Shown piece after piece: positions 5,523 through 46,352 of a stretch of 55,551 nt of DNA. The notes beneath the pieces are model-generated. The model was given only the letters and a program-made list of their open reading frames with translations, did not search any database and had not been told where the DNA came from. A program made the translations under genes and the position numbers. Each line of letters starts with the position of its first letter. Position 1 is the stretch's first letter. The DNA is from Oculatellaceae cyanobacterium bins.114 (GTDB lineage: Bacteria; Cyanobacteriota; Cyanobacteriia; Elainellales; Elainellaceae): the NCBI GenBank assembly GCA_033764315.1, contig JANRJA010000130.1, forward strand, positions 1-55,551, in the 5' to 3' direction.

Positions 5523-5528
5523 ACTCAG

Positions 5529-5570
5529 TACTCCTTGTAAAGCGTCACGCAAAACTCTGTACAAGGAGTA
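5529..5570. terminator. Hairpin between convergent genes (likely bidirectional terminator)
   Basis: TACTCCTTGTA (5529-5539) / TACAAGGAGTA (5560-5570). Confidence 0.6.
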
Positions 5571-5583
5571 ATCCCACTCGCAT

Positions 5584-7473: not shown

Positions 7474-7491
7474 TAGTCTGAACCAGACGAT

Positions 7492-7500
7492 GGGAATACT
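7492..7500 (+). promoter_or_regulatory. Candidate SigJ-type extended -10 element (J-box)
   Basis: Exact GGGAATACT 150 nt upstream of the AAA ATPase start; matches the consensus known for the Nostoc punctiforme hormogonium sigma factor SigJ. Confidence 0.5.
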
Positions 7501-7650
7501 GATTTTGATCTATCTCTCTTCTGACAGGATTCTGTGGCAATCGCTCCCTATTCTCCGGTTGACAATTCCCAAAGATTGAAGAGTCATACATACACAGACT
7601 ACCCATTTCAAAGAGATAGATACACTTAAACCACAGCGCAGCACATACCA

Positions 7651-9486: not shown

Positions 9487-9549
9487 TTTGCATACAGACA
9501 CGATTAATCACGTCCCTCCCTCCTACTCCCTATTCCCCTTTTAACTCCT

Positions 9550-9813
9550 ATGCTCTCTGAACAATCAAGCGATGTCGTTCGTCAACAAGCACTCACCGTA
9601 TTAACTGCCAGTTTTGTAGCTCAAGGACATCCTCCTGAATACGCCACTCATATGGCAACTGCTGCCATTTTTCAAACCGACTTAGAGTTGAGGAATGCCC
9701 AACTCTCTCGATTATTAAGTTGGTTAAAGCAAGAACATGACGAAATTTATCAAACAGCTCTAACACTGGTTGAATCAACTCGTGCAGAGTTTGAACGACG
9801 TGTAAAAGAATAA
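9550..9813 (+). CDS. Hypothetical helical protein in the gas-vesicle locus
   Basis: 87-aa ATG ORF with protein-like composition, 63 nt downstream of the AAA gene on the same strand. Confidence 0.7.
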   Translation: MLSEQSSDVVRQQALTVLTASFVAQGHPPEYATHMATAAIFQTDLELRNAQLSRLLSWLKQEHDEIYQTALTLVESTRAEFERRVKE

Positions 9814-10378
9814 CCTCCGAGGAATCGGTTAATAAAACTATCCGGATTCAAGGAGTACTTCTAGAAAAGTTCACTAGGCTGCGTTTCTTATATACAAACA
9901 GAAACAATCAACAGAGCGGTAAGTCTAAAACTAGATTTTTTCCGGTTGAATAAGCCTAGTCTTCCCAATCTTCTAGAACGTTTTTGGTTTGTACATATCA
10001 GTACCCAAAGTGATGTCTTGGTTTCCCTAACCTGATTATTATTTTTGTTACTGATGTTAGACGCTTCTGAGAAGTGGGAATGATTGAAATAACTCCAACA
10101 CCAGAGCGAATTAGCAAACCGCTAGCCCGATTTAGAAGGCAACTCCGCTCTTGGAATTGGATAGATGTCTGCTAACAGAAGCTTCGGCATTCTTGAACAG
10201 ATTCAGTATTTTTACTAGGTGCGTCATTTTGTAAAGTGAATTTTTCAGCGTTTACGCTGTAATTTCCGCTGCATTTGAGTACCTATCCTGTTCTTAGAAT
10301 TCGACTTTTGCTGACTCTTTCATGAGAGAGCAAGACATACTAAAGTCCCCGCATGTAACTCGTTTTAGGTGATTTATC

Positions 10379-10597
10379 ATGGCTGTTGAAAAAGTAAACT
10401 CTTCCTCTAGCTTGGCTGAAGTTGTTGACCGCATCCTCGACAAAGGTATCGTGGTTGATGCTTGGGTTCGTGTTTCCTTGGTTGGTATTGAATTACTAGC
10501 GATCGAAGCTCGCGTTGTTATTGCTTCCGTAGAAACCTACTTGAAGTATGCAGAAGCTGTTGGTTTAACTGCTCAAGCAGCAGTGCCCTCTGCGTAA
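10379..10597 (+). CDS. gvpA: Gas vesicle structural protein GvpA
   Basis: [64 protein letters not shown] is the canonical GvpA sequence. Confidence 0.98.
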
Positions 10598-10605
10598 AGA
10601 TTCCC

Positions 10606-10627
10606 TGGGGAGCCAGTTGGCTCCCCA
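10606..10627 (+). terminator. GC-rich stem-loop after gvpA (mRNA stabiliser or partial terminator)
   Basis: TGGGGAGCCA-GT-TGGCTCCCCA, no U-tract. Confidence 0.7.
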
Positions 10628-10681
10628 CAGCCCTCCCTACATCTGTAAACGCTATTTCTAGCCTCGCAGGAGGAAATTCCC

Positions 10682-11986
10682 GTGACTGCCTTCAAAGATC
10701 TGTGGCAAGAACAGAGGCGACTACGCCAAGCAGAAATATTACTGCGTAAACAAGAAGTACGAGACATCCTCACCTCATTTGAGCAAGAACGCCAAGTAAT
10801 GGCATCTCAGCTCCGGGACGATCTCAATCTTTTTCAATTAGAACTACAACACGAAACTCAAACATTTCTGACAAACGCCAATAAACAGCGACAAGCTCAA
10901 GCGGAACAGCTAACTCAGCTGCTCCGTAATTTTGTTCAGATCCTGCAATATCAAACCGCTGAATTTTTAGCTGCTAGTGCCGCCGATCGCTCTCTCATGG
11001 CACAACAGTTAACTCAAGATTTAAGCCGTTTTCACTCTCGTTTGATCACATCAGTTATTACCCTACGGCAAGCATTGCAAGCAAGAATGCAAGAGATTCA
11101 GGCAGAAGTTCAAATGCTGCAAGCCGAAACGCAAGACATGCTAGTTGTTAACCGTGAACAAAGGCTTCAAGCTAAAGAGCTGATGGTTCAAGAACTGGCC
11201 GCTTTTGTAGATGGATTGCGGATTGATGTGCAAAACTATCTCTCTGAACTAGAGCTCGTGAGACAAGATCGAGCACAGCAACTACAGCAAATGTTGCAAC
11301 TCGACCGGGAACGGCGCACCACCGAGGTTGATGCTATGTTCCAAGAATTATCAGAGTTCAGAACAGAGTTGCGACAATATTGTGTAAACCTGCGCTCACT
11401 GGTTTGGGGTGGGGAAGGAGCATCTCAGCCGGAAGCAGTAAAATCTCAAGCACCCCAACCTAAGCCACAACCTAAACCACAACCCCAAGTGCAACCCAGA
11501 GGGAGAGTTGTTGCAGCCACCAGAACCATGCCAAGAGCAGTGCCTCAAGTCAGAGCAACAACACCAACGATTCAATCGGTTGCAGCTAAACACTCTCAAA
11601 CAGCTCAGGCAACTCAACCAACCGTTCAGACACCAATAGCGAGTGCTCCAACTCCTTCCCCTGCTGAACTTCAGCCTGTAGTGACACCTTCCCAACCTGC
11701 TGTGATTACTCCAGCACCAATGACCGAAGCAACGATTGCCCAACCCGAAGTTTTAACGGTTGTTACCAATCCTAGCCCTAAACCAGTGCAATTAGATTCC
11801 GCTGAACTGGAAAAAGAAATCTATAACCATGTTCATCAAGTCAAAGGTGCACGGTTGACTGAGATTGAGTCAGCATTGGGAATTAATCGCTTCCAAGCCG
11901 TTGATGCACTCCGCTCCTTGATCAAAAAGGGGTTAATTACACAACGCGATCGCATTTACCTAATTCAAGAGGAAGCTAGTCTGTGA
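10682..11986 (+). CDS. gvpC: GvpC-like gas vesicle protein with Pro/Thr/Gln linker and C-terminal winged-helix domain
   Basis: 33-aa helical repeats (e.g. [33 protein letters not shown]); position between gvpA and gvpN; AGGAGG RBS. Confidence 0.85.
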
Positions 11987-13284
11987 CTACTGTTTTACGA
12001 GCCAGCCCCCGGCGTTTCGTCAACACCCCCGCTGTTGAACGAGTCGCTACACGAGCCTTACGTTATCTCCAATCAGGCTTTTCAGTACACTTGCGTGGTC
12101 CTGCCGGAACAGGCAAAACAACGCTAGCTCTGCATCTAGCCGATCTATTAAGCCGCCCCATCATGCTGTTGTTTGGTGATGATGAGTTCAAAACATCTGA
12201 CCTCATTGGCAACCAATCCGGTTATACCCGCAAAAAAGTCGTCGATAACTTTATTCACAGTGTTGTTAAGGTTGAGGACGAGCTGCGACAAAACTGGGTT
12301 GATTCGCGTCTAACCTTGGCATGTCGAGAAGGCTTTACCCTGGTATATGACGAGTTTAACCGCTCTCGCCCAGAGGTCAACAACGTCCTCTTGTCAGCAC
12401 TAGAGGAAAAGCTGTTGGTTCTGCCACCCAGCAACAATCGCACCGAATATATTCGAGTCAATCCTCATTTTCGAGCAATTTTTACCTCAAACCCAGAGGA
12501 ATATTGTGGGGTTCACGACACTCAGGATGCGTTGATGGATCGACTGATCACCATCAACATGCCTGAGCCTGACGAATTAACTCAGCAAGAGATTGCGGTG
12601 CAAAAAACAGGAATTGACCGAGAAAGTGCGTTAACGATCGTGCGATTAGTCAAGGCGTTTCGGACTCGCACCAGTGCCGAAAAGTCATCCGGTTTGCGGT
12701 CTTGCTTGATGCTGGCGAAGGTGTGTCATGAACATGGCATCTTAGCTATGCCTGAAAATCCTGAGTTTCGGGATATCTGTCAAGATGTCTTGCTGTCGCG
12801 CACAGGTTTACCGTTGCATGAGTCTACTCAACTCCTCTGGCAGCTTTTTAATGACCTCATTTGCAACGTTGAAAGTCAACCTGAAGTACCGATCACAACT
12901 GATGTACCTGCATTAGAAACGTTGATTGAGTCTAAAGTTGAGGTCATGTCAACTTCTCAAGCAATAGATTCTGGTGTCGCTGTACAAGCAACTGTAGAAG
13001 ATACACTGCCACAACCAACAGTAGATTTGAAAGCAATGACTCCAGAAGAGGAACTGCTTCACGTCGCTCCTTCGTTTGTTGAAGATGTTCCCCATGAACA
13101 GGCAGTTTATACCTATCTACAAGCGTCGCAAAATGCTCGTCCTTCAGAAATTGAAGCAGCATTAAATATCAGTCGTTATGAAACGGTCAACGCATTGCGT
13201 TCTTTAACTGCAAAAGGGCTACTGACTCATAAGGGCACCGCAGGTGCATCTGCTTATCGACTCAGTACCTCAAACGAAGGGTGA
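11983..13284 (+). CDS. gvpN: Gas vesicle AAA+ ATPase GvpN with C-terminal extension
   Basis: [46 protein letters not shown] overlap with gvpC. Confidence 0.95.
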
Positions 13285-13288
13285 GACC

Positions 13289-13630
13289 ATGACTGCAACA
13301 GTTCAACGAACTCCAAGCAACTCAAATCGTGCCATCACGACGTCTACTTCAGGCTCTACTCTAGCCGATGTACTAGAACGAGTGCTTGACAAGGGTATTG
13401 TGATTGCAGGAGATATCTCTGTTTCTGTGGGCTCCACAGAATTACTGAGTATCCGTATCCGCCTCCTCATATCATCTGTGGATAAAGCCAAAGAGATTGG
13501 GATCAACTGGTGGGAAAACGATCCTTACCTCAGTAGTCAATCTAATCAATTACTGGAGTCTAATCGCCAACTCCAAACTCGCATTGAAAGCCTAGAAACA
13601 GAGCTAAAGGCTCTCCGGGCAGCACCATAA
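13289..13630 (+). CDS. gvpJ: Gas vesicle protein GvpJ
   Basis: TLADVLERVLDKGIVIAGDISVSVGSTELL..INWWENDPYLSS; start moved to ATG 13289, just after the gvpN stop. Confidence 0.92.
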   Translation: MTATVQRTPSNSNRAITTSTSGSTLADVLERVLDKGIVIAGDISVSVGSTELLSIRIRLLISSVDKAKEIGINWWENDPYLSSQSNQLLESNRQLQTRIESLETELKALRAAP

Positions 13631-13728
13631 TAGAGTATGGTCTGAAAGCTAGGTTAGCTTTTAGTTTTGGTGTAAAGGGGGTGAGATCCAAAAATCAGGT
13701 TCTACCAATTCTTATCGTAATATAGCGA

Positions 13729-13932
13729 ATGAGCATGATTACCATTAAATCAATGAAGCAAATTCCAACTTGCAAGTTGTTACGGGGATTTCGCTCAGGG
13801 GGCTCTCGATTGCGATCAACTGATGGTGAACGGAGTCGCATCATGGCAGGATATGCTGAAATACAGATGCAAGAGACTCGTCGCCAGTGGCTCAAGGATA
13901 TTTGGTATAACCGGGAGACAGGACGATGCTAA
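13729..13932 (+). CDS. Small hypothetical protein in the gvp operon
   Basis: 67-aa ATG ORF on the operon strand; overlaps the next ORF by 7 nt. Confidence 0.55.
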   Translation: MSMITIKSMKQIPTCKLLRGFRSGGSRLRSTDGERSRIMAGYAEIQMQETRRQWLKDIWYNRETGRC

Positions 13933-14108
13933 TCAAGAATCAAACTAACCCACTGTATTCAACAAAACAACATCAGCCCATCAGCTCAGAACACTATCGC
14001 CAAATGTTAGCCCGTGATGGTGAACGTCGGTTCTATGAATGGCATAGTACCTTTTTACAATACCAAAAGGAATTTTTGAGACAACTCGAACAGTCTCGTC
14101 AGCGTTAA
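13926..14108 (+). CDS. Small hypothetical protein in the gvp operon
   Basis: 60-aa ATG ORF with AGGA RBS; ends 9 nt before gvpK. Confidence 0.6.
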   Translation: MLIKNQTNPLYSTKQHQPISSEHYRQMLARDGERRFYEWHSTFLQYQKEFLRQLEQSRQR

Positions 14109-14117
14109 GCTTAATTC

Positions 14118-14588
14118 ATGCCTTCTGACTCACCCATTCAAATTTCTCCAGGCGACAATCTAGAACCCCATCAGGGACCCAACGCCGGTCTAGCTCCATT
14201 GCTGTTAACAGTAGTGGAGCTTGTGCGTCAATTAATGGAAGCCCAAGTGATTCGTCGTATGGAATCAGGAGAATTGAGTGATTCTGATTTGGAACGGGCA
14301 GCCGACAGTTTACGTAAACTGGAAGAGCAAGTTGTCAATCTTTGTGACATATTTGAGATTGATCCAGCTGATTTAAATATTGACTTAGGAGAAATTGGGA
14401 CTTTGCTACCCAAAAGCAACGGTTACTATCCAGGAGAAACATCAACGAACCCATCGATTTTGGAATTGCTCGATCGCCTGCTAAATGTAGGGGTGGTTGT
14501 TGAGGGTGAGGTGGATCTGGGTCTGGCACAGTTGAATTTAATTCATGCAAAGCTGCGATTAGTGTTGACCTCTAAACCAATATCTTGA
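14118..14588 (+). CDS. gvpK: Gas vesicle protein GvpK
   Basis: GLAPLLLTVVELVRQLMEAQVIRRM..LNIDLGEIGTL plus GvpA-like C-terminal LELLDRLL. Confidence 0.93.
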   Translation: MPSDSPIQISPGDNLEPHQGPNAGLAPLLLTVVELVRQLMEAQVIRRMESGELSDSDLERAADSLRKLEEQVVNLCDIFEIDPADLNIDLGEIGTLLPKSNGYYPGETSTNPSILELLDRLLNVGVVVEGEVDLGLAQLNLIHAKLRLVLTSKPIS

Positions 14589-14690
14589 CTCATAAATCTC
14601 TTGCATAAGTCAATTTTTGAGGATGTGAATTGTTGTGCTGCTAGGCAATACAACGGTTCAAATTTGACCTTTAATCTCATAGTACAGATA

Positions 14691-14759
14691 TATAGCAGTC
14701 CTAAATCAGTTGTGAGATGGGCGGGTTGTGAGAGGCGCACCCCATTTGGGATTGCTGTA
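14691..14759. repeat. 69-bp MITE-like dispersed repeat, copy 1
   Basis: Ends TATAGCAGTCCTAAAT / ATTTGGGATTGCTGTA; closely similar copy at 39334-39402 and same left end at 55436. Confidence 0.8.
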
Positions 14760-14866
14760 TTACTTTGAATAACTCTGTCTAATATCCCGAAAAGATGTGA
14801 ACAATGCGGTAGGGAGTAGGGAAGTATTAGGTTATGGCTGTCCTGCCAGCATTTAGAGGGTGAATT

Positions 14867-15604
14867 ATGGGATATGGTCTTTATTTATATGGTATCTTCC
14901 CGCTTCCGGGGCCTCAAGATTTGCATCTAGAGGGCTTGGATAAACAGCCTGTTGGTACGCATAGGATTGACGAATTTGTGTTTCTCTATTCAGATGCTCA
15001 ACAGGAGCGATATCTCGCCAGTCGCAAGAATTTATTAGGGCACGAGAAGGTGTTGGAGCAGGCGATGGAGCAGGGCTATCGGACACTGTTACCGTTGCAA
15101 TTTGGGTTAACGATTGAAAACTGGGAAACGGTGGAGCAGCAATTAATTACTCCTCAAGGCGACGCTTTGAAACAGTTGTTTGCGAAGTTGGCTGGACATC
15201 GGGAGGTTGGGGTCAAAGTGTTTTGGGATCAAAATGCTGAATTGGAAACTTTGATGCAGGAGGATGAGGAGTTGCGTGTAAAGCGCGATCGCCTCGAAGG
15301 AAAATCCCTCAGCATGGATCAAATTGTTCAAATCGGACAAGCCATTGAACAGGCAATAAAGGATCGGAAACAAGCCATTATTAGTCTATTTCAAACTACT
15401 CTCAATCCATTGGCGATCGAAATTGTTGAGAATGATGTGTTAACCGATACTATGATTTACAACGCAGCGTACTTGATTCCCTGGGATACCGAGCCTCATT
15501 TTGGTGAGCAAGTTGAACTACTGGATCAGGAGTTTGAAGGTCGGCTTAAGATCCGCTACAACAACTTCACGGCTCCCTATAATTTTGCTCAAGCAAGAGA
15601 CTAA
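14867..15604 (+). CDS. gvpF: Gas vesicle protein GvpF (GvpL/F family)
   Basis: LYLYGIF, RYLASRKNLLGHEKVLE, LPLQFG, IRYNNFTAPYNFA. Confidence 0.92.
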   Translation: MGYGLYLYGIFPLPGPQDLHLEGLDKQPVGTHRIDEFVFLYSDAQQERYLASRKNLLGHEKVLEQAMEQGYRTLLPLQFGLTIENWETVEQQLITPQGDALKQLFAKLAGHREVGVKVFWDQNAELETLMQEDEELRVKRDRLEGKSLSMDQIVQIGQAIEQAIKDRKQAIISLFQTTLNPLAIEIVENDVLTDTMIYNAAYLIPWDTEPHFGEQVELLDQEFEGRLKIRYNNFTAPYNFAQARD

Positions 15605-27242: not shown

Positions 27243-29273
27243 ATGCTTGTTTGTCCCCAATGTCAGTTTGAGAACCCAGATGATCATAAATTTTGTCAGA
27301 AGTGCGGTGTTTCTCTGACAGAAGTTGTTTGTCCCGGTTGTGATGCAACAGTTCCCTCTGATGTAGAACAGTGTCCTCATTGCGGCACAACAACAGGAAC
27401 CTTTTGGTGGGCAGTTCAACTGCCTAACCCCTCGGTCACACAATCTCAGACAACTGCTCAAACGACGCCTCAAGCAGCTATTGCCCCTCCCCAATATCTT
27501 GATCCCCAGAAAAGATATAAACTCCTCGACCCTCTTCTTCCTTCCAGCTCAGTTCAGGATGCAGAAGCACAAGTTCTAGATTGCCAACCTTACCAACCCA
27601 CTCTCATCGATATTCTTCAGGAGCAGTCGCCCGAGTTCTTTAATGAGCTAGAGACAACAGAAAGATTTTCAAACCCCAGTGATGCTATGTCTTCGACAGA
27701 GGAAACCTCTTTAATTAAAGATTTGACCGTTCCAGCGATCGCTCAGACCTATCTAGCACTGCAATCCCAACTTCATCCTTCACTACCCAAACTACATGAT
27801 GCTTGGGAACAAGATGGACAAGCCACCCTGCTATTAGAAGATCGTTCAGAACTAACTTTATTATCCGATGCTTGGAGTTCTGACGATGTCTTGCCGTTGC
27901 AAATTTTGCATTGGCTCTATCAAATGACAGAAGTTTGGAAATTATTAGAACCTCATCACTGTTGTCAAAGCCTTTTAGAGCTAAGCAATCTGCGAATTGA
28001 TGAAGACCAGTTATTGTGCTTACAGCGACTCTACTTTGAAACACCAGAGCACGTATTGCAGCTCAAACATCTGGGGCGTTTGTGGCAACTGCTGTTTCAA
28101 ATGTCACAGCGTACTCAATTAGGGTCACTCGTGCGTCTATGTCACGATTTAGAATCCGGTGAAGTCACTGACATAGAGACATTACAGGCTCAGTTTGAAG
28201 CGATCGCCAATGAATTGCAACCTGAGGTAGCTCAACCCCCTACTTCTCCACCGCTACCCCCTCCAAATCTGTTAGAGGATAGCGATCGAACTATCGAACT
28301 GCCTCCTCCTCCCAATCTGTCTTCTGCCTCATTCCCAACCGCTGACATGAGTGTTTCAAGCAGCCCAACTCGATTTGAGTTAGGCAACCTGGAAGACGAC
28401 ACTACGGGCGAGGGCGACGACATTCCGACGGTCGTGCTGCCCATGAAGCTGATTAATTTAGAAGATGCAGGACGCACCGATGTTGGCAAACAACGAGAGC
28501 ACAACGAAGACTGCTTTAGCATTCAAGTTGACCTGAAGAAATTAGAAAGTCCTTCTGGTCGTACAGTGCAGGCTAAAGGACTTTACATTTTGTGTGATGG
28601 CATGGGTGGACATGCCGGAGGTGAAGTTGCGAGTGCAATGGCCGTTGAAACCCTGAAAAAATATTTTGAGGCTAACTGGCATGAGCAATTGCCCTCCGAG
28701 GAAAGCATTCGTGAAGCGATTCAACTCACTAACAAAGCAATTTATGACTTGAATCAGCAAAATGATCGCTCTGGTAGCGGTCGGATGGGAACAACATTAG
28801 TGTTGTTATTAGTACACGATACTCATGCTGCGATCGCCCATGTTGGAGATAGCCGTCTCTATCGCTTTAGCCGTCGTCGAGGGCTTGAACAAATCACAGT
28901 GGATCACGAAGTGGGTCAACGTGAAATTCAACGAGGTGTAGAACCTGCAATCGCCTATGCTCGACCTGATGCTTATCAGTTAACTCAAGCTTTAGGCCCA
29001 CGAGACGAAAACTTCGTCAACCCAGATGTACAGTTCATCGAATTAAGCGAAGATCTGTTGCTGTTGCTGTGTTCTGACGGACTGACGGACAACGATTTGC
29101 TAGAGACCCATTGGCGGACTCACGTTGAGCCACTCATTAGCTCTCAAACCAATCTTGAGCAAGGAGTTAGCCAACTGATTGACTTAGCCAACCACTACAA
29201 CGGTCACGATAACATCACCGCAGTGGTCATTAGAACAAAAGTCCGACCTAACCTGGAACAGTTAAAACGCTAA
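27243..29273 (+). CDS. PP2C-family Ser/Thr phosphatase with N-terminal double zinc ribbon
   Basis: Four CxxC pairs; REHNED, CDGMGGH, MGTT, AHVGDSR, LCSDGL, GHDNIT. Confidence 0.92.
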   Translation: MLVCPQCQFENPDDHKFCQKCGVSLTEVVCPGCDATVPSDVEQCPHCGTTTGTFWWAVQLPNPSVTQSQTTAQTTPQAAIAPPQYLDPQKRYKLLDPLLPSSSVQDAEAQVLDCQPYQPTLIDILQEQSPEFFNELETTERFSNPSDAMSSTEETSLIKDLTVPAIAQTYLALQSQLHPSLPKLHDAWEQDGQATLLLEDRSELTLLSDAWSSDDVLPLQILHWLYQMTEVWKLLEPHHCCQSLLELSNLRIDEDQLLCLQRLYFETPEHVLQLKHLGRLWQLLFQMSQRTQLGSLVRLCHDLESGEVTDIETLQAQFEAIANELQPEVAQPPTSPPLPPPNLLEDSDRTIELPPPPNLSSASFPTADMSVSSSPTRFELGNLEDDTTGEGDDIPTVVLPMKLINLEDAGRTDVGKQREHNEDCFSIQVDLKKLESPSGRTVQAKGLYILCDGMGGHAGGEVASAMAVETLKKYFEANWHEQLPSEESIREAIQLTNKAIYDLNQQNDRSGSGRMGTTLVLLLVHDTHAAIAHVGDSRLYRFSRRRGLEQITVDHEVGQREIQRGVEPAIAYARPDAYQLTQALGPRDENFVNPDVQFIELSEDLLLLLCSDGLTDNDLLETHWRTHVEPLISSQTNLEQGVSQLIDLANHYNGHDNITAVVIRTKVRPNLEQLKR

Positions 29274-34680: not shown

Positions 34681-35235
34681 ATGGCACTGGAGCCACGTGA
34701 ATTTTTAGTTCGAGTAGAAACGCGTATTGGGTTTACCAACGAAGATAAATCTATCCTCAAACAAAATGCAGATTGGGGATTACAAGTTGCTCCAGAAATG
34801 GCAGATCATTTTTATGCTTTCTTAGGTCGAGATGCAGAAATGAATGCAATTTTAAACGGCTCAGAAGGTCGTATTCACCGTCTACGAGAAACCTTCATTC
34901 AATGGTTTCATGAAATGTTTACTGGTATGGATGATTGGCAAGATGTTTATGCAAGCCGTCGTTGGCGTATTGGGCTAGTTCATGTGCAAATTGGTATTGG
35001 CCCTCAACACGTTGTACCAGCTATGGCTGTTGTGGTTCATGAAGTTGGTAAACGGCTTCAAGTAGATGGCAAAACAGAGACAGTCAGAGATGCTTTGAGC
35101 AAAATTTGTATGATTGATCTCGCCTTTATTGAGCAAGCCTATGTTGAGGTTTCATCCGCTGCTGTACTGCGCGAAACGGGTTGGACGGAAGGCTTATTCC
35201 GACGATTAATTACGACTGGCGCAGGCACAATGTAA
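34681..35235 (+). CDS. Stand-alone protoglobin / sensor-globin domain protein
   Basis: GFTNED, DHFY (B10 Tyr), RIGLVHVQIG (F8 proximal His), as in HemAT-type sensor globins; AGGAG RBS. Confidence 0.85.
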   Translation: MALEPREFLVRVETRIGFTNEDKSILKQNADWGLQVAPEMADHFYAFLGRDAEMNAILNGSEGRIHRLRETFIQWFHEMFTGMDDWQDVYASRRWRIGLVHVQIGIGPQHVVPAMAVVVHEVGKRLQVDGKTETVRDALSKICMIDLAFIEQAYVEVSSAAVLRETGWTEGLFRRLITTGAGTM

Positions 35236-35302
35236 CCCGCACTACAACTCCACTCCTCTTGTTCTTTTCGACTTATTATTTCAAACTCAAGGAGTTTCAA
35301 CT

Positions 35303-35674
35303 ATGGCTATTAGCACTGAAAAATTAACCCATGTTTTACAGGATTTCGTAACATCAACCAACGATGTTCAAGGTGCGGCAATTGTCACCCCTGATGGCTT
35401 GCCACTTGCAGCTAGTTTGCCAGGTGGCATGGATGAAGAACGGGTCTCTGCTATGTCTGCTGCAATGCTCTCTCTGGGCGAACGCATTGGTAATGAGCTT
35501 GCTAGAGGCGGAGTCGAGCGAATTTATGTTGAAGGTGACAAAGGCTTTGGAATCTTAACCAGTTGTGGTGAAGACGCTGTTTTTCTAGTTCTAGCTAATC
35601 AATCTGCAAAACAAGGCCTTTTGATGTTAGAAATCAAACGTGCTTTATCAGAACTAAAAGCAATCTTGATGTAG
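35303..35674 (+). CDS. Roadblock/LC7-domain protein (MglB-like)
   Basis: AAIVTPDGLPLAASL..ERVSAMSAAMLSLGER..VEGDKG. Confidence 0.9.
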   Translation: MAISTEKLTHVLQDFVTSTNDVQGAAIVTPDGLPLAASLPGGMDEERVSAMSAAMLSLGERIGNELARGGVERIYVEGDKGFGILTSCGEDAVFLVLANQSAKQGLLMLEIKRALSELKAILM

Positions 35675-35779
35675 TTTGATCAGGGAATTTTAAGGAGTTG
35701 GTCTGAGCGATTAAACTCAGCCTATCAATCTAGTAACAGTAAGACTTGATAGAAAACAAGTGTATCTCAATTTTGTATG

Positions 35780-35826
35780 GGTAGTGCGAGCATCTCGTTT
35801 ATCAGCAAGATGCCTGTCCCATTACC
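35780..35826. repeat. REP-like imperfect palindrome
   Basis: GGTAGTG..GCATCT..AGATGC..CATTACC. Confidence 0.5.
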
Positions 35827-35987
35827 TTCGATCAACTTACAACTGTGAGGTACTCCCATAAAGAACTTACAAAAATAAAAATTAATGAGTTCTTTTCAAT
35901 CACTTACGGCTGTTAATAGATTGCCTTTTATCCCTTTTAATTCCCTATCCTTTTCCTTGCCTTTATTTCCTACTGCTTTAACGTTAT

Positions 35988-36533
35988 ATGGAAATCATGC
36001 GACTGGTTGTAACCGGACCTGTAGGAGCTGGAAAATCTACTTTTATTCGTTCAGTAAGTGAGATTGAGGTGGTCGATACCGATCGCCGAGCAACAGACGA
36101 AACCGCCCTTTTAAAGAAGAAAACGACAGTTGCATTTGATTTTGGGCGACTTCAGTTTGGTTCTGATATGGCGTTGCACTTGTATGGTACTCCTGGACAG
36201 TCCCGTTTTGATTTTATGTGGGATATTTTGATTCGCAAGGCCCATGCCTATATTTTGCTAGTTGCGGCTCATCGTCCCCATGAGTTTCGTGATGCCCGTC
36301 GTATTTTGACATTTATGAGGCGGCGATCGCCTGCACCGATGATCATTGGCTTAACCCATGCCGATTGCGAGGGTGCTTGGGATGAAGAAAATGTAGCGAT
36401 CGCGATTGGTCATCTTGACTCTCAACAGCGACCTCTAATTGTTAAAGTGAATGCCACAGAAACAGCTTCAGTGGCACATGCTGTTTTGGCATTAGTACAA
36501 ACCTCCCTCCAAACAAATTGTTTAGTTAGTTGA
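35988..36533 (+). CDS. Small Ras-like GTPase of the MglA/CvnD group
   Basis: G1 GPVGAGKST, G2 TTVAFDFG, G3 GTPGQSRF, degenerate G4 THAD, G5 NAT. Confidence 0.88.
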   Translation: MEIMRLVVTGPVGAGKSTFIRSVSEIEVVDTDRRATDETALLKKKTTVAFDFGRLQFGSDMALHLYGTPGQSRFDFMWDILIRKAHAYILLVAAHRPHEFRDARRILTFMRRRSPAPMIIGLTHADCEGAWDEENVAIAIGHLDSQQRPLIVKVNATETASVAHAVLALVQTSLQTNCLVS

Positions 36534-36652
36534 ATCTGTTAGAAGTACTACCCTTCACAGATAAATGAATTTTGTGTGTTGGTTTCTCACCCATAACCAA
36601 TCAATCCTACTTAGCTAGGAAGGCACAAACTGAGTCAGCAGAGGCAAAGGAT

Positions 36653-37513
36653 ATGGCAATCACAGGGTATTTAACGGAATTTTCACTGGCAGAGATTTTT
36701 CAATTGCTGGAGCAAGGCCGCAAAACTGGACTGTTAGGTATTTCTAAACTTTCAGAAGCAAAAGAGGAAAGCAGAAATCACTATATTTGGTTTAGCCAAG
36801 GGCGCATTGTTGGAGCAGCACAAACCCTCGACCATCAAGGGTTAATTGGTCTGATTAGCCAACGAGGTTGGTTAGGCGATCGCGCTGCTTTTAAGCTGGC
36901 ACAAAGTTGCAAACTTGATACACCCATTGGGTTGTGTCTCAAATCGCAAGGGGTGTTACAAGCTGAACAACTCAAGCTGCTGTTTTATACCCAGGTCATG
37001 CGACAGGTCTGTGCCCTTTTTGAACTAAAAGATGGCTGGTTTCAATTTGATGGCAAAGCTCCACTCCCCCCTTCTGAAATGACGGGACTGAGTGCTCCTG
37101 CGACAGAAGTAACTTTGGCAGGCTTACGAGCTCTTAAAGACTGGAGCGCATTGAAAGACAAACTGCCTGACCCCGCTTCTAGCATTATCAGCGTTGTCGA
37201 TGGCAAGCCCGATTTAAAGCTCAATCAACTGGAGTGGCAGGTGTGGGAATTCACAAATGGCACCTTGCCCCTAAAGGCGATCGCTCAGCAAATGCGTCTA
37301 ACTATCGAGCAACTGCAACACATTGCCTTTCGGTTGATGGTGGTTGGGCTAATAGAAGAACTTCCCATCTTAGATTCCGTCACTGCTCCTCAGCCGACAG
37401 AATTGTTATTTCCCAGCGAACCCTCTGCGATCGCCACTGAAACCTCTGACGCTTCAAAAGTCAGCCAAACATTTCTACAAAACCTGGTTGGTTTTCTCAA
37501 AGGCAAAATGTAA
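36653..37513 (+). CDS. DUF4388 / PATAN-domain protein
   Basis: GYLTEFSLAEIFQLLEQGRKTGLL..IWFSQGRIVGA..FELKDGWFQF and a C-terminal HTH-like segment; start moved to ATG 36653. Confidence 0.85.
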   Translation: MAITGYLTEFSLAEIFQLLEQGRKTGLLGISKLSEAKEESRNHYIWFSQGRIVGAAQTLDHQGLIGLISQRGWLGDRAAFKLAQSCKLDTPIGLCLKSQGVLQAEQLKLLFYTQVMRQVCALFELKDGWFQFDGKAPLPPSEMTGLSAPATEVTLAGLRALKDWSALKDKLPDPASSIISVVDGKPDLKLNQLEWQVWEFTNGTLPLKAIAQQMRLTIEQLQHIAFRLMVVGLIEELPILDSVTAPQPTELLFPSEPSAIATETSDASKVSQTFLQNLVGFLKGKM

Positions 37514-37822: not shown

Positions 37823-39004
37823 CTAGTGGTGATGATGGTGATCCCCGTGATGGTGATCGTCATGGTGGTGGTGATCGCCATGATGGTGGTCATGGGAATG
37901 AGCTTGTGAAGCTGCAAGGGTAGGATTGACAGCTAAAGCCTGTTCAGTCAACAAATCAGCAATCAAAGGATTTGCCCACTCTGCCGCCATCTTTAAGAAC
38001 TCTGGCCGATCATTAACACAGGGCATTTGCACATAGGTCACATCAGGACGTTGGCGACGTAGATCGTGAATGATGTGATCGACATCTAGTAGCGTCTCGT
38101 GATTTTCAGTGGCAAACCCAATGGGCATAAACACGATTGCGGTTGCTCCCAACTCCATCAAGTTTCGGGCAGCTAAGTCTGCATTGGGCTGAGTCCATTC
38201 GATCAGAGGAGTTTGGTGGTTCAACCAACCCACAGAGATCAGGGGATAGCGATGGATCAACCGCTCCCGAACTCGCTCATAGAGTGCTTGACTTTCGTCA
38301 ATGCCAGAGGTGAAGCCTTTTGCCTTGTGAGGGCAACCGTGATTCATCAACACAATGCCCGTTTGAGAGGGCAAATGAGCGACTTCTAGATAGGCTTTGA
38401 TTTTCTCTTCAACCATTTGAGCCATTAGATTGATGTAATCAGGCTCATTGTAGAAAGAGGGAATATAACGCATCCCTTTGACCCAATGCTCAGCACCATC
38501 ACTCAAGTGGGCTAGAGCTTTGTTAACCTGTTCAACCGCAATGCCGCTAGTAAAGATTGAGTCTACGACTAACAGAGGATAGATGAGAATCTTGCTAAAC
38601 CCCTGAGCTTTGATCTCAGTCAAAACCTGTTCTGGCAGAAAAGGAGCACAGAAGTTAAATGCTTTGAAAACTTGAATGCGATCGCCCCATTGAGCTTTAA
38701 GGTGCTGTTCAATTCCAACCCTTTGTTGCTCAAAAATTGCATTATGAGGCGAAATAAAGTGATTGTGTTGATGGCTCCACTCATGCAGATCAAAAACTGC
38801 CAATAACTTCGCCAGTGGCGGATAAATCCAGGTTGGGACAGGAGCAAACTTAGCCGTTAACAGATTTAGAGCTTGTTCGTTGTAATTGGCAAAGTCTTCA
38901 TAGCTCTCGACTTCCCCATACCCCATCAATAAAACAGCGACCCGCTCAGTGGGGGAACCCTGATTAGAAACCTGCTGTTGCAGTTTTTCGGGAGTAGCAA
39001 CCAC
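37823..39004 (-). CDS. hemH: Ferrochelatase-family chelatase with His-rich tail and no CAB domain
   Basis: VAVLLMGYG, ISPHN, MNHGCP, W..P, PIGFATENHETL; GTG 39004 preceded by GAGGTG. Confidence 0.8.
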   Translation of the reverse strand: MVATPEKLQQQVSNQGSPTERVAVLLMGYGEVESYEDFANYNEQALNLLTAKFAPVPTWIYPPLAKLLAVFDLHEWSHQHNHFISPHNAIFEQQRVGIEQHLKAQWGDRIQVFKAFNFCAPFLPEQVLTEIKAQGFSKILIYPLLVVDSIFTSGIAVEQVNKALAHLSDGAEHWVKGMRYIPSFYNEPDYINLMAQMVEEKIKAYLEVAHLPSQTGIVLMNHGCPHKAKGFTSGIDESQALYERVRERLIHRYPLISVGWLNHQTPLIEWTQPNADLAARNLMELGATAIVFMPIGFATENHETLLDVDHIIHDLRRQRPDVTYVQMPCVNDRPEFLKMAAEWANPLIADLLTEQALAVNPTLAASQAHSHDHHHGDHHHHDDHHHGDHHHHH

Positions 39005-39333
39005 GCTAATCACCTCAATGAATAAAGTTCTTGAATGCAATTGATAACAAACCCAGCAAAACCACCGTATCCCATAGCTTCGGTCAAGACTGTAGAGCCG
39101 ATTTTCACTTAAAGCCCTGTTTGAGCGTGGATTTCAAGTGCTCCATTGGCTGAACCGTCAGGACAACTGCTAGGGTTACACGTTTGCTGTGCGTTGATTC
39201 TTCTTAGGGTAGCATCCCCCCAATGGGGATGTGTAAACGAATTAAAGAATCTATGAAAGGGAGTATGCCAAAAGTGAAGAGATTATCGGCGAAATCAACG
39301 GGAAGTCTTTTGATTTCAAACGATCGCCCCTGC

Positions 39334-42398: not shown

Positions 42399-43154
42399 CT
42401 ACTTCAAAATCTGTTGAGCCACCTTTTGAACCTCGTGAGTATAGACGTGATTGGTGTACTCCAAACAAAAGATTCCTGAGCTAGACAACTGCACCATCTC
42501 ATCATTGAGCGGGAAAATACCAATCACAGGTGCCCGAAACTTTTGTTCGATTTGCTCCTCAATCGATTTAAAGTCGTGACTTGGCAACACTTTATTGATC
42601 ACCAAAGAAATTTTGGCAGTGTCGAGTTTACGAGCGACCTGTAAAGTCACGGCTGTCCCTTGAAAGTCTTGGCGATCGGGGCGCAGAATGATGATCAAGT
42701 TGTCGGAGATGGCAATAGACAATAGGGTTTCTTTATTTAACCCAGGATGGGTGTCGATAAATAAATAATCTAGGTTTAAGCCCTGACAGAGATGGCGCAC
42801 CCCATCATTGAGCATAGTGACGCTATAGCCCTCATTGAGAATTCGGGCAATTTCACCCGCTTTGATGCTAGAGGGAATGAGATGAATCGTGCCACCGCTT
42901 TTAGATACGGCATCTGGGGTGACATCATAGGCTGCTTCACCAATCGTGCAGCGACCCCAGAGATAATCGTTGAGCGATCGCGCCATTGTGCTTTCATCTA
43001 GCCCAAAAATGACATGAATCCCTGGAGATTGAATATCTGTATCAATAATGCCAACGCGATGACCTTGCCCAGCAACGACCGCAGACAGGTTGGCGGTCAG
43101 ATTAGACTTGCCGGTTCCACCACGGAATGAGTGTATGGAGATAATTTTTGTCAT
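42399..43154 (-). CDS. MinD/ParA-family ATPase, atypical RGGTGKS subtype
   Basis: IISIHSFRGGTGKS, IIDTDIQSPG, IDTHPG, VINKV; no C-terminal amphipathic helix. Confidence 0.88.
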   Translation of the reverse strand: MTKIISIHSFRGGTGKSNLTANLSAVVAGQGHRVGIIDTDIQSPGIHVIFGLDESTMARSLNDYLWGRCTIGEAAYDVTPDAVSKSGGTIHLIPSSIKAGEIARILNEGYSVTMLNDGVRHLCQGLNLDYLFIDTHPGLNKETLLSIAISDNLIIILRPDRQDFQGTAVTLQVARKLDTAKISLVINKVLPSHDFKSIEEQIEQKFRAPVIGIFPLNDEMVQLSSSGIFCLEYTNHVYTHEVQKVAQQILK

Positions 43155-43192
43155 GCATCCGCTCCCTGTCTGCTTGTTATCTTAATCATCCA

Positions 43193-44974
43193 TTACTCTG
43201 TGGTATCGTCTTGGCGATGCGAAGCAGTTCCTCCATCGGGATCAGCACCCTGACTTCGCAATCGTTTGGCCTCTTGCTGCAATTGGCGTAAGTATCCTGT
43301 TTCATAATCATCCTCTACTGGTGCACTCGTTTCTATATCAGACGTTTCAATCAACTCAGAGGATGGCTGTTCATGGCTCACCTCACTGTCTCGTTGCTCT
43401 CTCAACATCCTTGCCTTCTGTTGCAGGTTTTTGAGATAGTCTGCACCATCATCTGATTCTGAAACCTTTTTAGGTTCTAGGCTAGAAGGCTCAGCTACTT
43501 CCGATGCAGATGCATCTTCGGCACCCAAGCCATCACCCCGTTGCCCCCTTAAACTTTTGGCTCTTTGTTGTAAATCTTGGAAGTAATCTGTTTCAGTAAT
43601 TTCAGAGACCTGCTTCTCAAGTTTCTCATGATCAATCTCAATATTAAGCTTGAGGAAAGTTTTAACTTGGCGATAGACGTTTTGACCGTAAGTACTCTTA
43701 TTAAAACGATCAACTAAAACAGCTCCAGCTGCGGTGATAACGAAGGCGATCGCCGGGGGAACAAGAGGAATCCAACCATTGTTTAAGAAGACTAGGAAAC
43801 AAGTGCCATAGAGAACACCCACTGAGACTAGAATCATACCGCCAAATTTGAGAGGATGGCGGGCATACCATGCCAATACTCCACCGACTAATGACCATCC
43901 AAAAATCCAGATAATCTCAATTGAGTTATTCCACGTCCAAATGGTCGATTGCCCATCTAAAACAGCCCCTAAGATTTGGCTGACCACCTGAGCATGAACG
44001 ATGACCCCTGACATCTTCTGGTCGTCATCTTCTCCAGCACTGTATGGAGTATAAAAATCATCTTTGGCTTCAGGAGTGGTATATCCAATTAAAACAACAC
44101 GATCGCGAATCAGCTCAGGATTAATCCGTCCTTCTAGAACATCACTCAGGCTAACTTGAGCCGCGACATGATGGGACGATCGATAATCCAGCATAATCTG
44201 AAACCCAGCTGAATCGGCCGATTGGTAAGCTCCAGTCGTTGGTTCAAATGGATAAAAGGAAGTTGAGCCTAGTTTCAACACTCCAGAGGGAGTCAACTCA
44301 GCAGTCACATTCTGAGGGGCAAGATAGTGCAGTGCCAATTGCAAACTTAACGCTACCAGAGGGGCATTGGGATCACTGCAAAAGTGTTTGATTGAATTGG
44401 GTCGATTAGAAGGTGGAGGAACAACTAATAGGAGGCTACGGCGCAAAGTCCCCCCCGGATCAACCACTAAATCAGCAAAGCCAATTCGATCACCAGGAAT
44501 ATCTGGCGGCGGCGGAGTACCAGGTTCATCTGAAGCACTAACTTTGCAAACCGTGATAATGCGATCGCTCTGCTGCAATACGCCCAATAACTCCTCTCGT
44601 CCTTCCCCAATTGGAATATCCCGCATGATGTCTAACCCAATCACACGCGGATTCTGTTCCTCTAAAACTGTCAACAACTTAGCGAGTGTGCGATCAGAGA
44701 TAGGCCACTCTTGACGACGTTGAATATCGTCTTCTGTAATGCCAACAATAAGCAGTCGATCGTCTTCTCCTTTATCAGGTTGGCTCCGAACGAGATGATC
44801 GTAGGCAGCCAATTCCATGCCCTGCAAACCCCCTAAATAGCGTAACCCCAACAGCAGGGAGGTTAGCGTCAAGCTAGTAAACAAGACTGGACGACCCACG
44901 TCTAGCAAAACTGGCTTAACCTGGTCAAACCAGGGTACTTTAGATTGAATAGCCTCTAACAAACGACGGGGCAT
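43193..44974 (-). CDS. CHASE2-domain transmembrane sensor without a catalytic output domain
   Basis: N-terminal TM, LLIVGITEDD..WPISD, IGLDI, VVDPGG..RR, VLIG, DDFYTPY, GVIVHAQVVSQIL, three TM helices, then a short repeated cytoplasmic tail. Confidence 0.9.
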   Translation of the reverse strand: MPRRLLEAIQSKVPWFDQVKPVLLDVGRPVLFTSLTLTSLLLGLRYLGGLQGMELAAYDHLVRSQPDKGEDDRLLIVGITEDDIQRRQEWPISDRTLAKLLTVLEEQNPRVIGLDIMRDIPIGEGREELLGVLQQSDRIITVCKVSASDEPGTPPPPDIPGDRIGFADLVVDPGGTLRRSLLLVVPPPSNRPNSIKHFCSDPNAPLVALSLQLALHYLAPQNVTAELTPSGVLKLGSTSFYPFEPTTGAYQSADSAGFQIMLDYRSSHHVAAQVSLSDVLEGRINPELIRDRVVLIGYTTPEAKDDFYTPYSAGEDDDQKMSGVIVHAQVVSQILGAVLDGQSTIWTWNNSIEIIWIFGWSLVGGVLAWYARHPLKFGGMILVSVGVLYGTCFLVFLNNGWIPLVPPAIAFVITAAGAVLVDRFNKSTYGQNVYRQVKTFLKLNIEIDHEKLEKQVSEITETDYFQDLQQRAKSLRGQRGDGLGAEDASASEVAEPSSLEPKKVSESDDGADYLKNLQQKARMLREQRDSEVSHEQPSSELIETSDIETSAPVEDDYETGYLRQLQQEAKRLRSQGADPDGGTASHRQDDTTE

Positions 44975-45629: not shown

Positions 45630-46352
45630 ATGGCAAGGCTATTTCTGCGTCTTACTTCTATTTCTGCTTCCTTGTTCCTGGGCTTAATCGTACCTATCGG
45701 GGTCTCCACTGCCGTCCTTGCACAAAGTATTCAATTTAATGCCCCTTCTATTGGCGCACCTGGTAATCGGGAGTCAGGTGCATCTCGGAGTGCTCCTTGT
45801 GCCACTAGCGATCGCGGATTAAAAGCACTGTTACCAGAAACGAATGTCGGCTTGACGACAGAAGCTCGTCCTACATTTTTTGCCTACATTCCTCCCTCCT
45901 CTGCTAAAACCGCAGAATTTATCCTCTATGAAGATGGCACCGACGAACTGATTTATAGCACGGCTTTAGACATCACTGGTGAGTCGGGTATTGCCAACAT
46001 CAGCCTCCCTTCTGACCCTAATATTCCTTCTCTAGAAGTCAACAAAACCTATTACTGGTATTTCACAGTCATTTGTGATGCTGATGATCGCTCGGCTGAC
46101 ATGACTGTTCAAGGCACCATCCAACGGGTTCCTGTCAGTTCAGATTTGGCGCGCCAGTTAGCCTCCGCCTCATCTCAAGAACGTCCAGCTATTTATGCAG
46201 CAGCGGGTATTTGGCAAGATGCTCTGGCTGCTCTAGCAGCTCTCAATCGCCTTGAGCCTAACAACCCCAATGTTCGCTCAAATTGGAACTCATTGCTAGC
46301 AGCGGTTGGCTTGCAAGATATTGCCAATGAGCAGCTTTTTGATCAAAATTAG
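45630..46352 (+). CDS. DUF928-domain exported protein
   Basis: Signal peptide; G.PGNRESGASR, ALLP..GLT...PTFFAYIP, YYWYF, YAAAGIWQDAL, WNSLL..VGL. Confidence 0.88.
   Translation: MARLFLRLTSISASLFLGLIVPIGVSTAVLAQSIQFNAPSIGAPGNRESGASRSAPCATSDRGLKALLPETNVGLTTEARPTFFAYIPPSSAKTAEFILYEDGTDELIYSTALDITGESGIANISLPSDPNIPSLEVNKTYYWYFTVICDADDRSADMTVQGTIQRVPVSSDLARQLASASSQERPAIYAAAGIWQDALAALAALNRLEPNNPNVRSNWNSLLAAVGLQDIANEQLFDQN

Follow-up and report, generated by a model that had tools for sequence, protein, structure and literature searches.

A stretch of 55,551 nt (positions 1-55,551 of contig JANRJA010000130.1) of Oculatellaceae cyanobacterium bins.114, the whole of which we refer to as the window, carries two neighboring genes that are the subject of this analysis; they encode a CHASE2 receptor and a MinD-like ATPase (Table 1). 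All 42 open reading frames (ORFs) of the window were scanned with Pfam, five of them being without any match, and families were checked against Pfam (2025 copy) and NCBIfam release 20. The receptor scored 224.9 bits against the CHASE2 family (PF05226; cut-off 26.3 bits), and its hydropathy profile contains four transmembrane helices (residues 26-48, 351-369, 379-397, and 402-420) that bracket this domain. Since one of these helices precedes CHASE2 and three follow it, the tail of the protein (residues 425-593; 169 amino acids) is placed in the cytoplasm. CHASE2 usually precedes cyclase, GGDEF, or kinase domains. In the window receptor, no catalytic domain follows the last transmembrane helix, CHASE2 is the sole Pfam domain, and NCBIfam is without a match. 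An earlier reading made from the sequence alone (the sequence-only reading) had described a CHASE2 domain followed by three transmembrane helices and no enzymatic output, and Pfam, NCBIfam, and hydropathy agree on this description.

The tail, with its 36 acidic and 22 basic residues, holds a motif of about 45 amino acids, IEID..K..QV.EITETDYF..LQ.KA..LR, whose full copy in the receptor (residues 436-476) reads QVKTFLKLNIEIDHEKLEKQVSEITETDYFQDLQQRAKSLR. Helix 1 of this element ends in ..IEID..K..QV.EITET, a kink follows at TD, and helix 2 is YFQDLQQRAKSLR; the helix-kink-helix shape was taken from the model of a fused homolog (P0185) described below. The first [DG]Y[FL]xxLQQxAxxLR copy occupies residues 463-476, and two more copies of this helix are spaced by linkers that are rich in D, E, S, T, and P and contain 9 and 12 D plus E in 35 and 34 residues, respectively. 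We aligned the motif region of 13 other proteins with that of the window receptor to obtain profile A1, which picked out three stretches of the receptor tail and nothing else in a six-frame translation of the window. Coordinates, A1 matches, and composition together bear out the earlier description of a tail with one full motif and two additional copies of its last helix on acidic linkers. Searches of the tail for catalytic or other domain families returned only noise (Pfam at E ≤ 10; NCBIfam at E ≤ 0.01). The ESM Atlas gave no usable feature match for the tail, and its structural neighbors there had TM (template modeling) scores below 0.35 except for CHASE2 or HAMP-GAF repeats.

The ATPase gene begins 38 nt past the receptor stop codon. 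This gap is short, contains a GGGAG sequence 9 nt before the ATG, and is free of any terminator-like site; therefore, the receptor and ATPase genes probably form one operon. The ATPase matches AAA_31, ParA, and CbiA in Pfam (E 5e-18 to 1e-14), and its P-loop, switch aspartates, and MinD-like fold are those of the SIMIBI (ParA/MinD) superfamily. Residues 8-18 read HSFRGGTGKSN. The best solved relative is A. fulgidus MinD (1hyq; E 4.7e-18), in whose alignment the R of RGGTGKS sits on the signature K of KGGTGKT; the ORF and this alignment confirm that an ATPase with RGGTGKS lies 38 nt downstream of the receptor, as had been proposed.

The archaeal MinD family (TIGR01969) was the best-scoring named family for the ATPase, with 97.5 bits and hence below the cut-off of 201.75. 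The protein likewise falls short of septum-site MinD (TIGR01968; 57.0 bits vs. 212.9), whose signature lysine it also lacks, of the ParA partition ATPases (NF041546; 46.8 bits vs. 180), with no ParB encoded in the window, and of the KGGVGR-motif variant AAA ATPases (NF047398; 67.6 bits vs. 90), the motif here being RGGTGKS. None of the 42 ORFs of the 55-kb window matched a MinC, MinE, or ParB family, as the sequence-only reading had noted for the corresponding genes. Orthologs of the ATPase, 51-84% identical, occur across Cyanobacteria, Chloroflexota, Actinomycetota, and Acidobacteriota, and HS.RGGTGKSN (including R11), DTD..SPG, and DTHPG are invariant segments in the 24 orthologs on which we judged conservation. 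It is probable that R11, at the signature position, can still reach the nucleotide of the partner subunit. No conserved extension past the last core helix was seen in these 24 orthologs, the C-termini of which vary; no dedicated test for amphipathicity was made. The family is large, with at least 8000 candidates of similar length, all at E ≤ 1e-30, and its source names are only generic ('MinD/ParA family protein', 'MinD-like ATPase'); one close homolog is recorded from Leptolyngbya boryana. RGGTGKS was read in all 120 near-length matches, in 108 of the 120 long forms, and in 47 of the 49 ATPase ORFs from the related loci introduced below. One of the two deviating ORFs is cut by the end of its contig; the other, a diverged second paralog in L035 (5164-5994, + strand; E 2e-55), carries RPGTGKS and precedes the regular ATPase, at a place between the genes for the sensor and the winged-helix protein.

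The gene order, with a MinD-related P-loop protein right after a membrane protein whose activating part would be a short C-terminus in the cytoplasm, is reminiscent of bacterial tyrosine kinases (BY-kinases). By analogy, the ATPase might be a P-loop tyrosine kinase that is activated by the C-terminus of the receptor and phosphorylates the Tyr of TDYF or its own tail; the motif Tyr is at least 90% conserved in A1, and weak matches to kinase models exist (e.g., TIGR01007, E 4.7e-9). The score obtained with that BY-kinase model, however, is 36.1 bits vs. the 108.05 required, and MinD models score higher. Moreover, the C-terminus of the ATPase (...EYTNHVYTHEVQKVAQQILK) has no tyrosine cluster and is not conserved, and the motif Tyr is replaced in many fusions, with H in the A3 consensus ATDHF and F in P0024 and P0195. 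We consider a kinase of this type very improbable.

A search with the receptor tail retrieved 29 proteins at E ≤ 0.01 among 727 candidates. Twenty of them are CHASE2 proteins and nine have other architectures, including HAMP with Tll0287-like, GAF, HisKA-REC, and HAMP with CHASE4; in these nine, the matched part is the last ~45 residues. When A1 was searched against 1,835,955,588 representative proteins, it matched 2211 protein clusters at E ≤ 1e-3 and 929 at E ≤ 1e-10. Among the best 150 of the 2211 matches, on which all architecture and position counts rest, HAMP is the commonest Pfam domain, accompanied by dCache, sCache, GAF, REC, CHASE2 (9/150), CHASE3, CHASE4, MASE1, and PAS, and further by Tll0287-like, nSTAND1, WD40, ECF-type S component, DUF4118, and 5TMR-LYT domains. 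Pfam detected no cyclase, GGDEF, EAL, or phosphatase domain in any of the 150, and a complete histidine kinase is present in a single protein. The motif ends within 15 amino acids of the C-terminus in 117/150 proteins and within 30 in 131/150. More than 60 residues follow it in 11/150, eight of which are CHASE2 proteins with extra helix-2 copies.

Many types of sensor have the motif as a conserved C-terminal module. Its positions E, T, D, F, L, and R are near-invariant across phyla in the split proteins, and in HAMP proteins it runs on directly from the HAMP helices. Neither Pfam nor NCBIfam holds a model for it, as judged in each case from the window tail and four other motif proteins, two of the four being fusions in the NCBIfam check. 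Searches of the literature outside subscription journals, PMC1592074 and PMC8195603 included, turned up no account of the RGGTGKS subfamily, of the motif, or of CHASE2 paired with MinD. With its A1 match, a tail free of catalytic domains, and an adjacent RGGTGKS ATPase, the window receptor is a member of this class. The profile search and the listing of architectures that had been suggested together with the sequence-only reading hence returned the motif on many sensor architectures without enzymatic output, and the surmise of a modular element without a name in Pfam or NCBIfam holds. The idea of multivalent helices fared less uniformly: the window receptor does have three copies, but such repetition is not universal, only 13/150 proteins having two or more motif stretches (maximum six); these are mainly CHASE2 proteins, with several that are not.

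We scanned one genome per species for related loci, obtained 320 pattern matches of which 288 were confirmed, and kept the best 80 (31 from Cyanobacteria, 33 from Chloroflexota, 7 from Actinomycetota, and 9 from other phyla). An ortholog of the ATPase is present in 48 of these 80 loci (E 6e-34 to 5e-140). Where a motif ORF could be called (79 loci), the ATPase gene lies directly downstream on the same strand in 39, at distances of -4 to 1320 nt that include seven 4-nt overlaps, and elsewhere within the 5-kb flank in nine. Natural fusions provide a second line of evidence. Long homologs of the ATPase (441-2000 amino acids) numbered 130 at E ≤ 1e-20 among 2727 candidates, and in 96 of the 120 listed, the motif stands directly N-terminal of the ATPase domain, a domain order identical to the gene order of the window. 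The motif is tied genetically to the RGGTGKS subfamily through operon position and natural fusions. What the sequence-only reading had put forward tentatively, a recurrence of the motif on other sensors beside RGGTGKS ATPases, has therewith become a matter of counts.

This recurrence also bears on the objection that the tail might be a relic of a catalytic output domain with an unrelated ATPase gene as its neighbor. The usual company of CHASE2 favors such a relic, and some sources label homologs of the receptor 'adenylate cyclase'. A decayed domain is at odds, however, with a tail that matches no catalytic family even at E ≤ 10, with a motif conserved in 2211 clusters, and with an ATPase pairing that recurs in both loci and fusions. 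We give this explanation practically no credence, and the objection is not upheld.

The stretch between motif and ATPase in the fusions spans ~6 to ~110 residues; it amounts to 12-17 residues in the cNMP (cyclic nucleotide)-binding and dCache types and mostly to ~40-110 residues in the HisKA-REC types. Some fusions of the latter type have a degenerate motif or none that was detected, as might be expected if less affinity is needed between parts that are already tethered. An AlphaFold2 model of the fused protein P0185 (95-row alignment; mean predicted local distance difference test score [pLDDT] 70.5) predicts for the motif a long helix (166-213) that stops at ..EITET and, past a kink at TD, another helix (216-238); the pLDDT is below 50 in the linker that follows (241-248) and ~85-95 in the ATPase domain. 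Foldseek matched this ATPase domain to 1hyq (E 3.9e-15; TM score 0.87, normalized by target), and the fold search also found resemblance to FlhG and FleN (4rz3, 5j1j) and to Soj.

To model the proposed contact, two copies of the ATPase, ATP, and Mg were combined with the 52-amino-acid motif as partner in a complex prediction that was read without an interface in its output. The three runs scored 0.50, 0.54, and 0.50, compared to 0.01 for the best of three controls; the runs share at least 89% of their contacts, and the pLDDT of the partner is 62 or higher. The mark applied here was reached by 116/157 solved complexes and by 2/215 mismatched pairs in calibration, with scores of 0.60 or lower comprising only 18/157 solved complexes plus both mismatches that passed. 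The prediction for an ATPase dimer with peptide, which had been proposed as a check, accordingly set the motif apart from the controls, but it did so at the level of weak support.

The weakness of this prediction, the position of the motif between sensor and ATPase in the fusions, and its continuity with HAMP helices could all be accounted for if the motif were a dimerizing coiled-coil or signaling-helix linker that was left on the sensor after fission of an ancestral fusion, with nothing but co-regulation connecting the two split genes. However, near-invariance of E, T, D, F, L, and R across phyla in split proteins would not be maintained in a linker that lacks a partner. Neither the duplication of helix 2 in 13/150 proteins nor the persistence at the extreme C-terminus in 117/150 is expected of such a remnant, and the true linker to the ATPase, which varies in length and is modeled with low confidence, lies apart from the motif. 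We therefore regard this explanation as improbable.

Many of the loci without CHASE2 contain an unnamed protein of about 110 amino acids with a winged-helix fold beside the ATPase. Its profile, A4, matches 25/80 loci, namely 24/48 with an ATPase vs. 1/32 without (Fisher p = 4e-6). At its N-terminus, the protein carries a G[IL]F segment that is conserved, and its C-terminal tail is basic. Its model reached a pLDDT of 73.9, with a MarR-like protein (2eth; E 1.2e-3) as the best fold match; since the fold search returned nothing at E ≤ 1e-3, we make only a generic winged-helix call. The same domain also occurs in the middle of membrane proteins of about 950 amino acids, two of the eight scanned having a permease-like region (Aa_trans, Trp_Tyr_perm) and the other six giving no Pfam match, and it is fused behind the ATPase in P0273. 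This small protein beside the ATPase is probably the downstream partner in those 24 of the 48 loci.

A winged-helix and possibly DNA-binding protein beside a ParA-like ATPase, in the manner of ParA plus an adaptor, would also suit a machine for cargo positioning, in which a ParA/MinD-type motor distributes or clusters sensors through the motif as an adaptor tag and no information passes through the ATPase. The fold and sequence of the ATPase are of the MinD, Soj, and FlhG type, one tag is found on many sensors with often a single ATPase gene, and motif genes without an adjacent ATPase (27/79) can be read in the same way. On the other hand, small soluble sensor domains (cNMP-binding, PAS, REC) are fused to the ATPase in the 96/120 long forms; it is difficult to see how positioning would work with cargo and motor in one protein, and the fusions therefore weigh against it. 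In addition, the 24 orthologs show no conserved C-terminal extension that could serve as a membrane-targeting helix, and there is no centromere or ParB family in the window. We judge positioning to be unlikely, though less so than a linker remnant.

With somewhat better than even confidence, we interpret the receptor and ATPase genes as a signaling module, in which the ~45-amino-acid motif, as the only output of the receptor, couples to a dedicated MinD-like ATPase. Short basic amphipathic helices of MinE and ParB switch MinD/ParA ATPases, and helix 2 of the motif is amphipathic, with conserved K and R, and in character like these partner helices. The motif, above all the amphipathic basic helix 2 ([DG]Y[FL]xxLQxKAxxLR), would dock on the ATPase. 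Sensors whose output is HAMP or a coiled coil are dimeric, the register of coiled coils governs dimeric cyclases and kinases, and SIMIBI ATPases act as an ATP-bound sandwich dimer. The state of the sensor may set the geometry or the availability of two motif copies, which would then control the ATP-dependent sandwich dimerization of the ATPase, or its hydrolysis, a step that every SIMIBI switch relies on; because the sensors and the SIMIBI switches are both dimeric, gating of this kind is the simplest model. In the window receptor, the three helix-2 copies on acidic flexible linkers could raise the local concentration of the ATPase at the membrane. The ATPase dimer would in turn act on a downstream partner.

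Several observations weigh against this signaling module. Among the 79 motif genes, 27 lack an ATPase although at least 900 nt of sequence follow on the downstream side (in another four loci without an ATPase, the flank sequence ends early), so that coupling would have to act in trans on an ATPase encoded elsewhere. No homolog of the winged-helix protein was found in the window with A4 in six frames, and in the fusions the motif may simply connect two domains. The score of the predicted complex is a weak pass, and this pass may partly reflect likeness to MinD-peptide complexes, which have already been solved. Since the locus and fusion data give a strong prior, we count the score as modest added support. 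The adjacency itself, expected from the sequence-only reading, is well documented by the 39/79 genes directly downstream, the RGGTGKS reads in 47/49 locus ORFs, and the 96/120 fusions.

Table 1. Features of the receptor-ATPase locus in the window, natural fusions of the motif with the ATPase, and winged-helix proteins of related loci (L numbers).
Feature	Position in the window (nt), length, or loci	Strand	Basis or remark
MinD-like (SIMIBI) ATPase gene, 251 amino acids, RGGTGKS subfamily	42399..43154	-	ORF, Pfam, NCBIfam, orthologs
Deviant Walker A RGGTGKS, residues 11-17, Arg replacing the signature Lys	43104..43124	-	Aligned to A. fulgidus MinD KGGTGKT
Intergenic gap of 38 nt with GGGAG ribosome-binding site	43155..43192	-	No terminator-like site
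Receptor gene: CHASE2 receptor of 593 amino acids, C-terminal motif tail, without enzymatic output	43193..44974	-	ORF; Pfam CHASE2 only
CHASE2 extracytoplasmic sensor domain, residues 39-366	43877..44860	-	PF05226, E 1.7e-66, 224.9 bits
Three transmembrane helices after CHASE2, residues 351-420	43715..43924	-	Hydropathy peaks
Full output motif, residues 436-476	43547..43669	-	A1 domain E 8.5e-28
Second helix-2 copy, residues 512-525, DYLKNLQQKARMLR	43400..43441	-	A1 domain E 3.8e-4
Third helix-2 copy, residues 560-573, GYLRQLQQEAKRLR	43256..43297	-	A1 domain E 6.8e-3
DUF928 protein, N-terminal signal-like segment, divergent from receptor	45630..46352	+	Pfam E 4.4e-63
Fusion cNMP-binding - motif - ATPase	~505 amino acids		
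Fusion HisKA - REC - (HAMP) - motif - ATPase	~710 amino acids		Many cyanobacteria
Fusion dCache - motif - ATPase	~760 amino acids		
Fusion PAS - motif - ATPase	~505 amino acids		
Winged-helix protein, small form	L013, L021, L035, L039, L040, L049, L054, L060, L061, L063, L067, L070-L072, L075, L076, L080		
Winged-helix domain inside large proteins	L026, L030, L034, L039, L047, L065, L075, L079		

Further genes recur in the vicinity of the motif and the ATPase. Class III cyclases are found near motif or ATPase genes, a single-linkage cluster of ORFs in 24/80 loci (L020, L021, L027, L044, L049, L055, and L006 among them) consisting mostly of such enzymes; Guanylate_cyc was detected in 7/8 tested members of this cluster, often together with AAA_16 and TPR. 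The recurrent cyclases, taken with the fusions of a cNMP-binding domain to motif and ATPase, hint at a link to cAMP. The cyclase beside the motif gene in L055 has the same zinc-ribbon N-terminus as a protein of the window (27243-29273, + strand; 676 amino acids) in which an N-terminal double zinc ribbon is combined with a C-terminal PP2C phosphatase. DUF928 is the divergent upstream neighbor in 15 of the 19 cyanobacterial CHASE2-motif loci (L001-L019). Its signal-like N-terminus suggests that it may be a periplasmic partner of CHASE2, and a function as accessory protein or partner in the periplasm is possible. A glutaminase gene follows the ATPase in seven of these 19 loci (L001, L006-L010, and L014); in L002, which has no ATPase in the locus, it comes directly after the receptor gene, and P0180 is an ATPase-glutaminase fusion of 610 amino acids. 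No glutaminase is encoded among the ORFs of the window.

In the window, the receptor gene is adjoined between positions 45630 and 50558 by the genes for DUF928 (+ strand), a pentapeptide-repeat protein of 425 amino acids (+ strand), and a TPR-CHAT protein of 913 amino acids (- strand). We ran PADLOC on two proteins of related loci and, from the window, on the receptor, the ATPase, and the DUF928, pentapeptide, and CHAT proteins; only weak P-loop and TPR matches were returned, and a reading as a defense system was therefore dropped. Four consecutive genes at 34681-37513 (+ strand) encode a protoglobin, a Roadblock/LC7 protein, a Ras-like small GTPase (ATP_bind_1/Roc/Ras), and a DUF4388 protein; this group looks like a second unconventional sensor-to-NTPase signaling cluster (MglA/MglB-like), 5 kb from the receptor-ATPase pair. 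A ferrochelatase/CbiX-like protein (37823-39040, - strand) ends in a long tail rich in His and Asp (...HSHDHHHGDHHHHDDHHHGDHHHHH), a feature suggestive of a chelatase that stores or delivers metal. A gas-vesicle cluster occupies positions 4851-15604, with GvpL/F twice, GvpA-like proteins twice, and GvpK, and this region also holds a two-domain ArsA-like ATPase (5584-7473, - strand) and AAA+ proteins.

In a wider sense, we put forward tentatively, at a little short of even odds, that these genes represent an undescribed and widespread architecture that is independent of phosphorylation. It would comprise dozens of sensor types that seem to have no output of their own, the shared motif, and an ATPase with the Arg signature, whose nucleotide-dependent dimer would act on a winged-helix adaptor that is either free or contained in large permease-like membrane proteins, and possibly on cyclases or a glutaminase; it would exist in split and in fused form. 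In the split form, docking would occur in trans, with many sensors per ATPase. There is a substantial chance that the module is a distinct signaling architecture. Many bacterial sensors, such as HAMP-only, GAF-only, and CHASE2-only proteins, are annotated without an output and are absent from signaling censuses; for at least 2211 protein clusters, the motif now supplies a candidate output together with a partner that can be tested. If the reading is true, a SIMIBI ATPase would join the modular outputs known so far (kinases, cyclases, GGDEF/EAL, DNA-binding, and methyl-accepting domains), and the partner-helix principle of MinE and ParB would have been recruited to receptor signaling. The natural split and fused forms are ready constructs for structural and biochemical work, and the conserved DUF928-CHASE2-ATPase arrangement in cyanobacteria suggests a periplasmic input, which has never been studied.

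Known systems resemble this module in part. The Streptomyces conservons consist of the CvnA sensor, a Roadblock protein, a DUF742 protein, and a small GTPase; they likewise couple a sensor, with no phosphorelay, to a small HTH-like protein and a switch of the P-loop NTPase kind, but their switch is a Ras-like GTPase and not a SIMIBI ATPase, and there are no Roadblock and no DUF742 matches in the system described here. In the CapA/CapB and TkmA/PtkA pairs, the short cytoplasmic C-terminus of a membrane protein activates a BY-kinase. The order of genes, membrane protein first and MinD-related P-loop protein second, is the same as in the window, whereas the defining features of BY-kinases are missing from our ATPase. 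The C-terminal NWETF pentapeptide of chemoreceptors tethers CheR and CheB, and provides a parallel for a short, conserved element at the extreme C-terminus that recruits, via a flexible linker, a soluble enzyme shared among receptors; it differs in sequence, length, and partner, the partner here being the presumed output and not an adaptation enzyme.

In PpfA-TlpT and ParC-ParP, ParA-like ATPases act on chemoreceptor arrays. There, too, a receptor or array protein bears an element that is recognized by a ParA-like ATPase. These systems, however, position one cargo, whereas the tag described here is found on more than 10 sensor architectures and is often fused to the ATPase. FleN/FlhG, which control flagellar assembly and the transcription factor FleQ, illustrate the use of a MinD-like ATPase as a regulatory switch outside of cell division; the structural matches to 4rz3 and 5j1j and the possible DNA-binding partner beside the ATPase in related loci add to the likeness. 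In contrast to FleN/FlhG, there is no flagellar or sigma-54 context here, and the input would come via modular sensors and a dedicated motif. MinD-MinE and ParA-ParB share with our module the MinD fold, a deviant Walker A motif, and a short amphipathic partner helix with conserved basic residues. They are set apart by the signature Lys, which is an Arg here, by MinC, MinE, and ParB, none of which is encoded in the window, and by the place of the partner helix, which here is not on a small dedicated regulator but is a C-terminal module of many sensors. Sensor domain, MinD-like ATPase, and partner helix each belong to a known kind of component; their combination as a modular sensor output has no name in Pfam or NCBIfam, and the literature searches, which did not extend to subscription journals, returned nothing on it.

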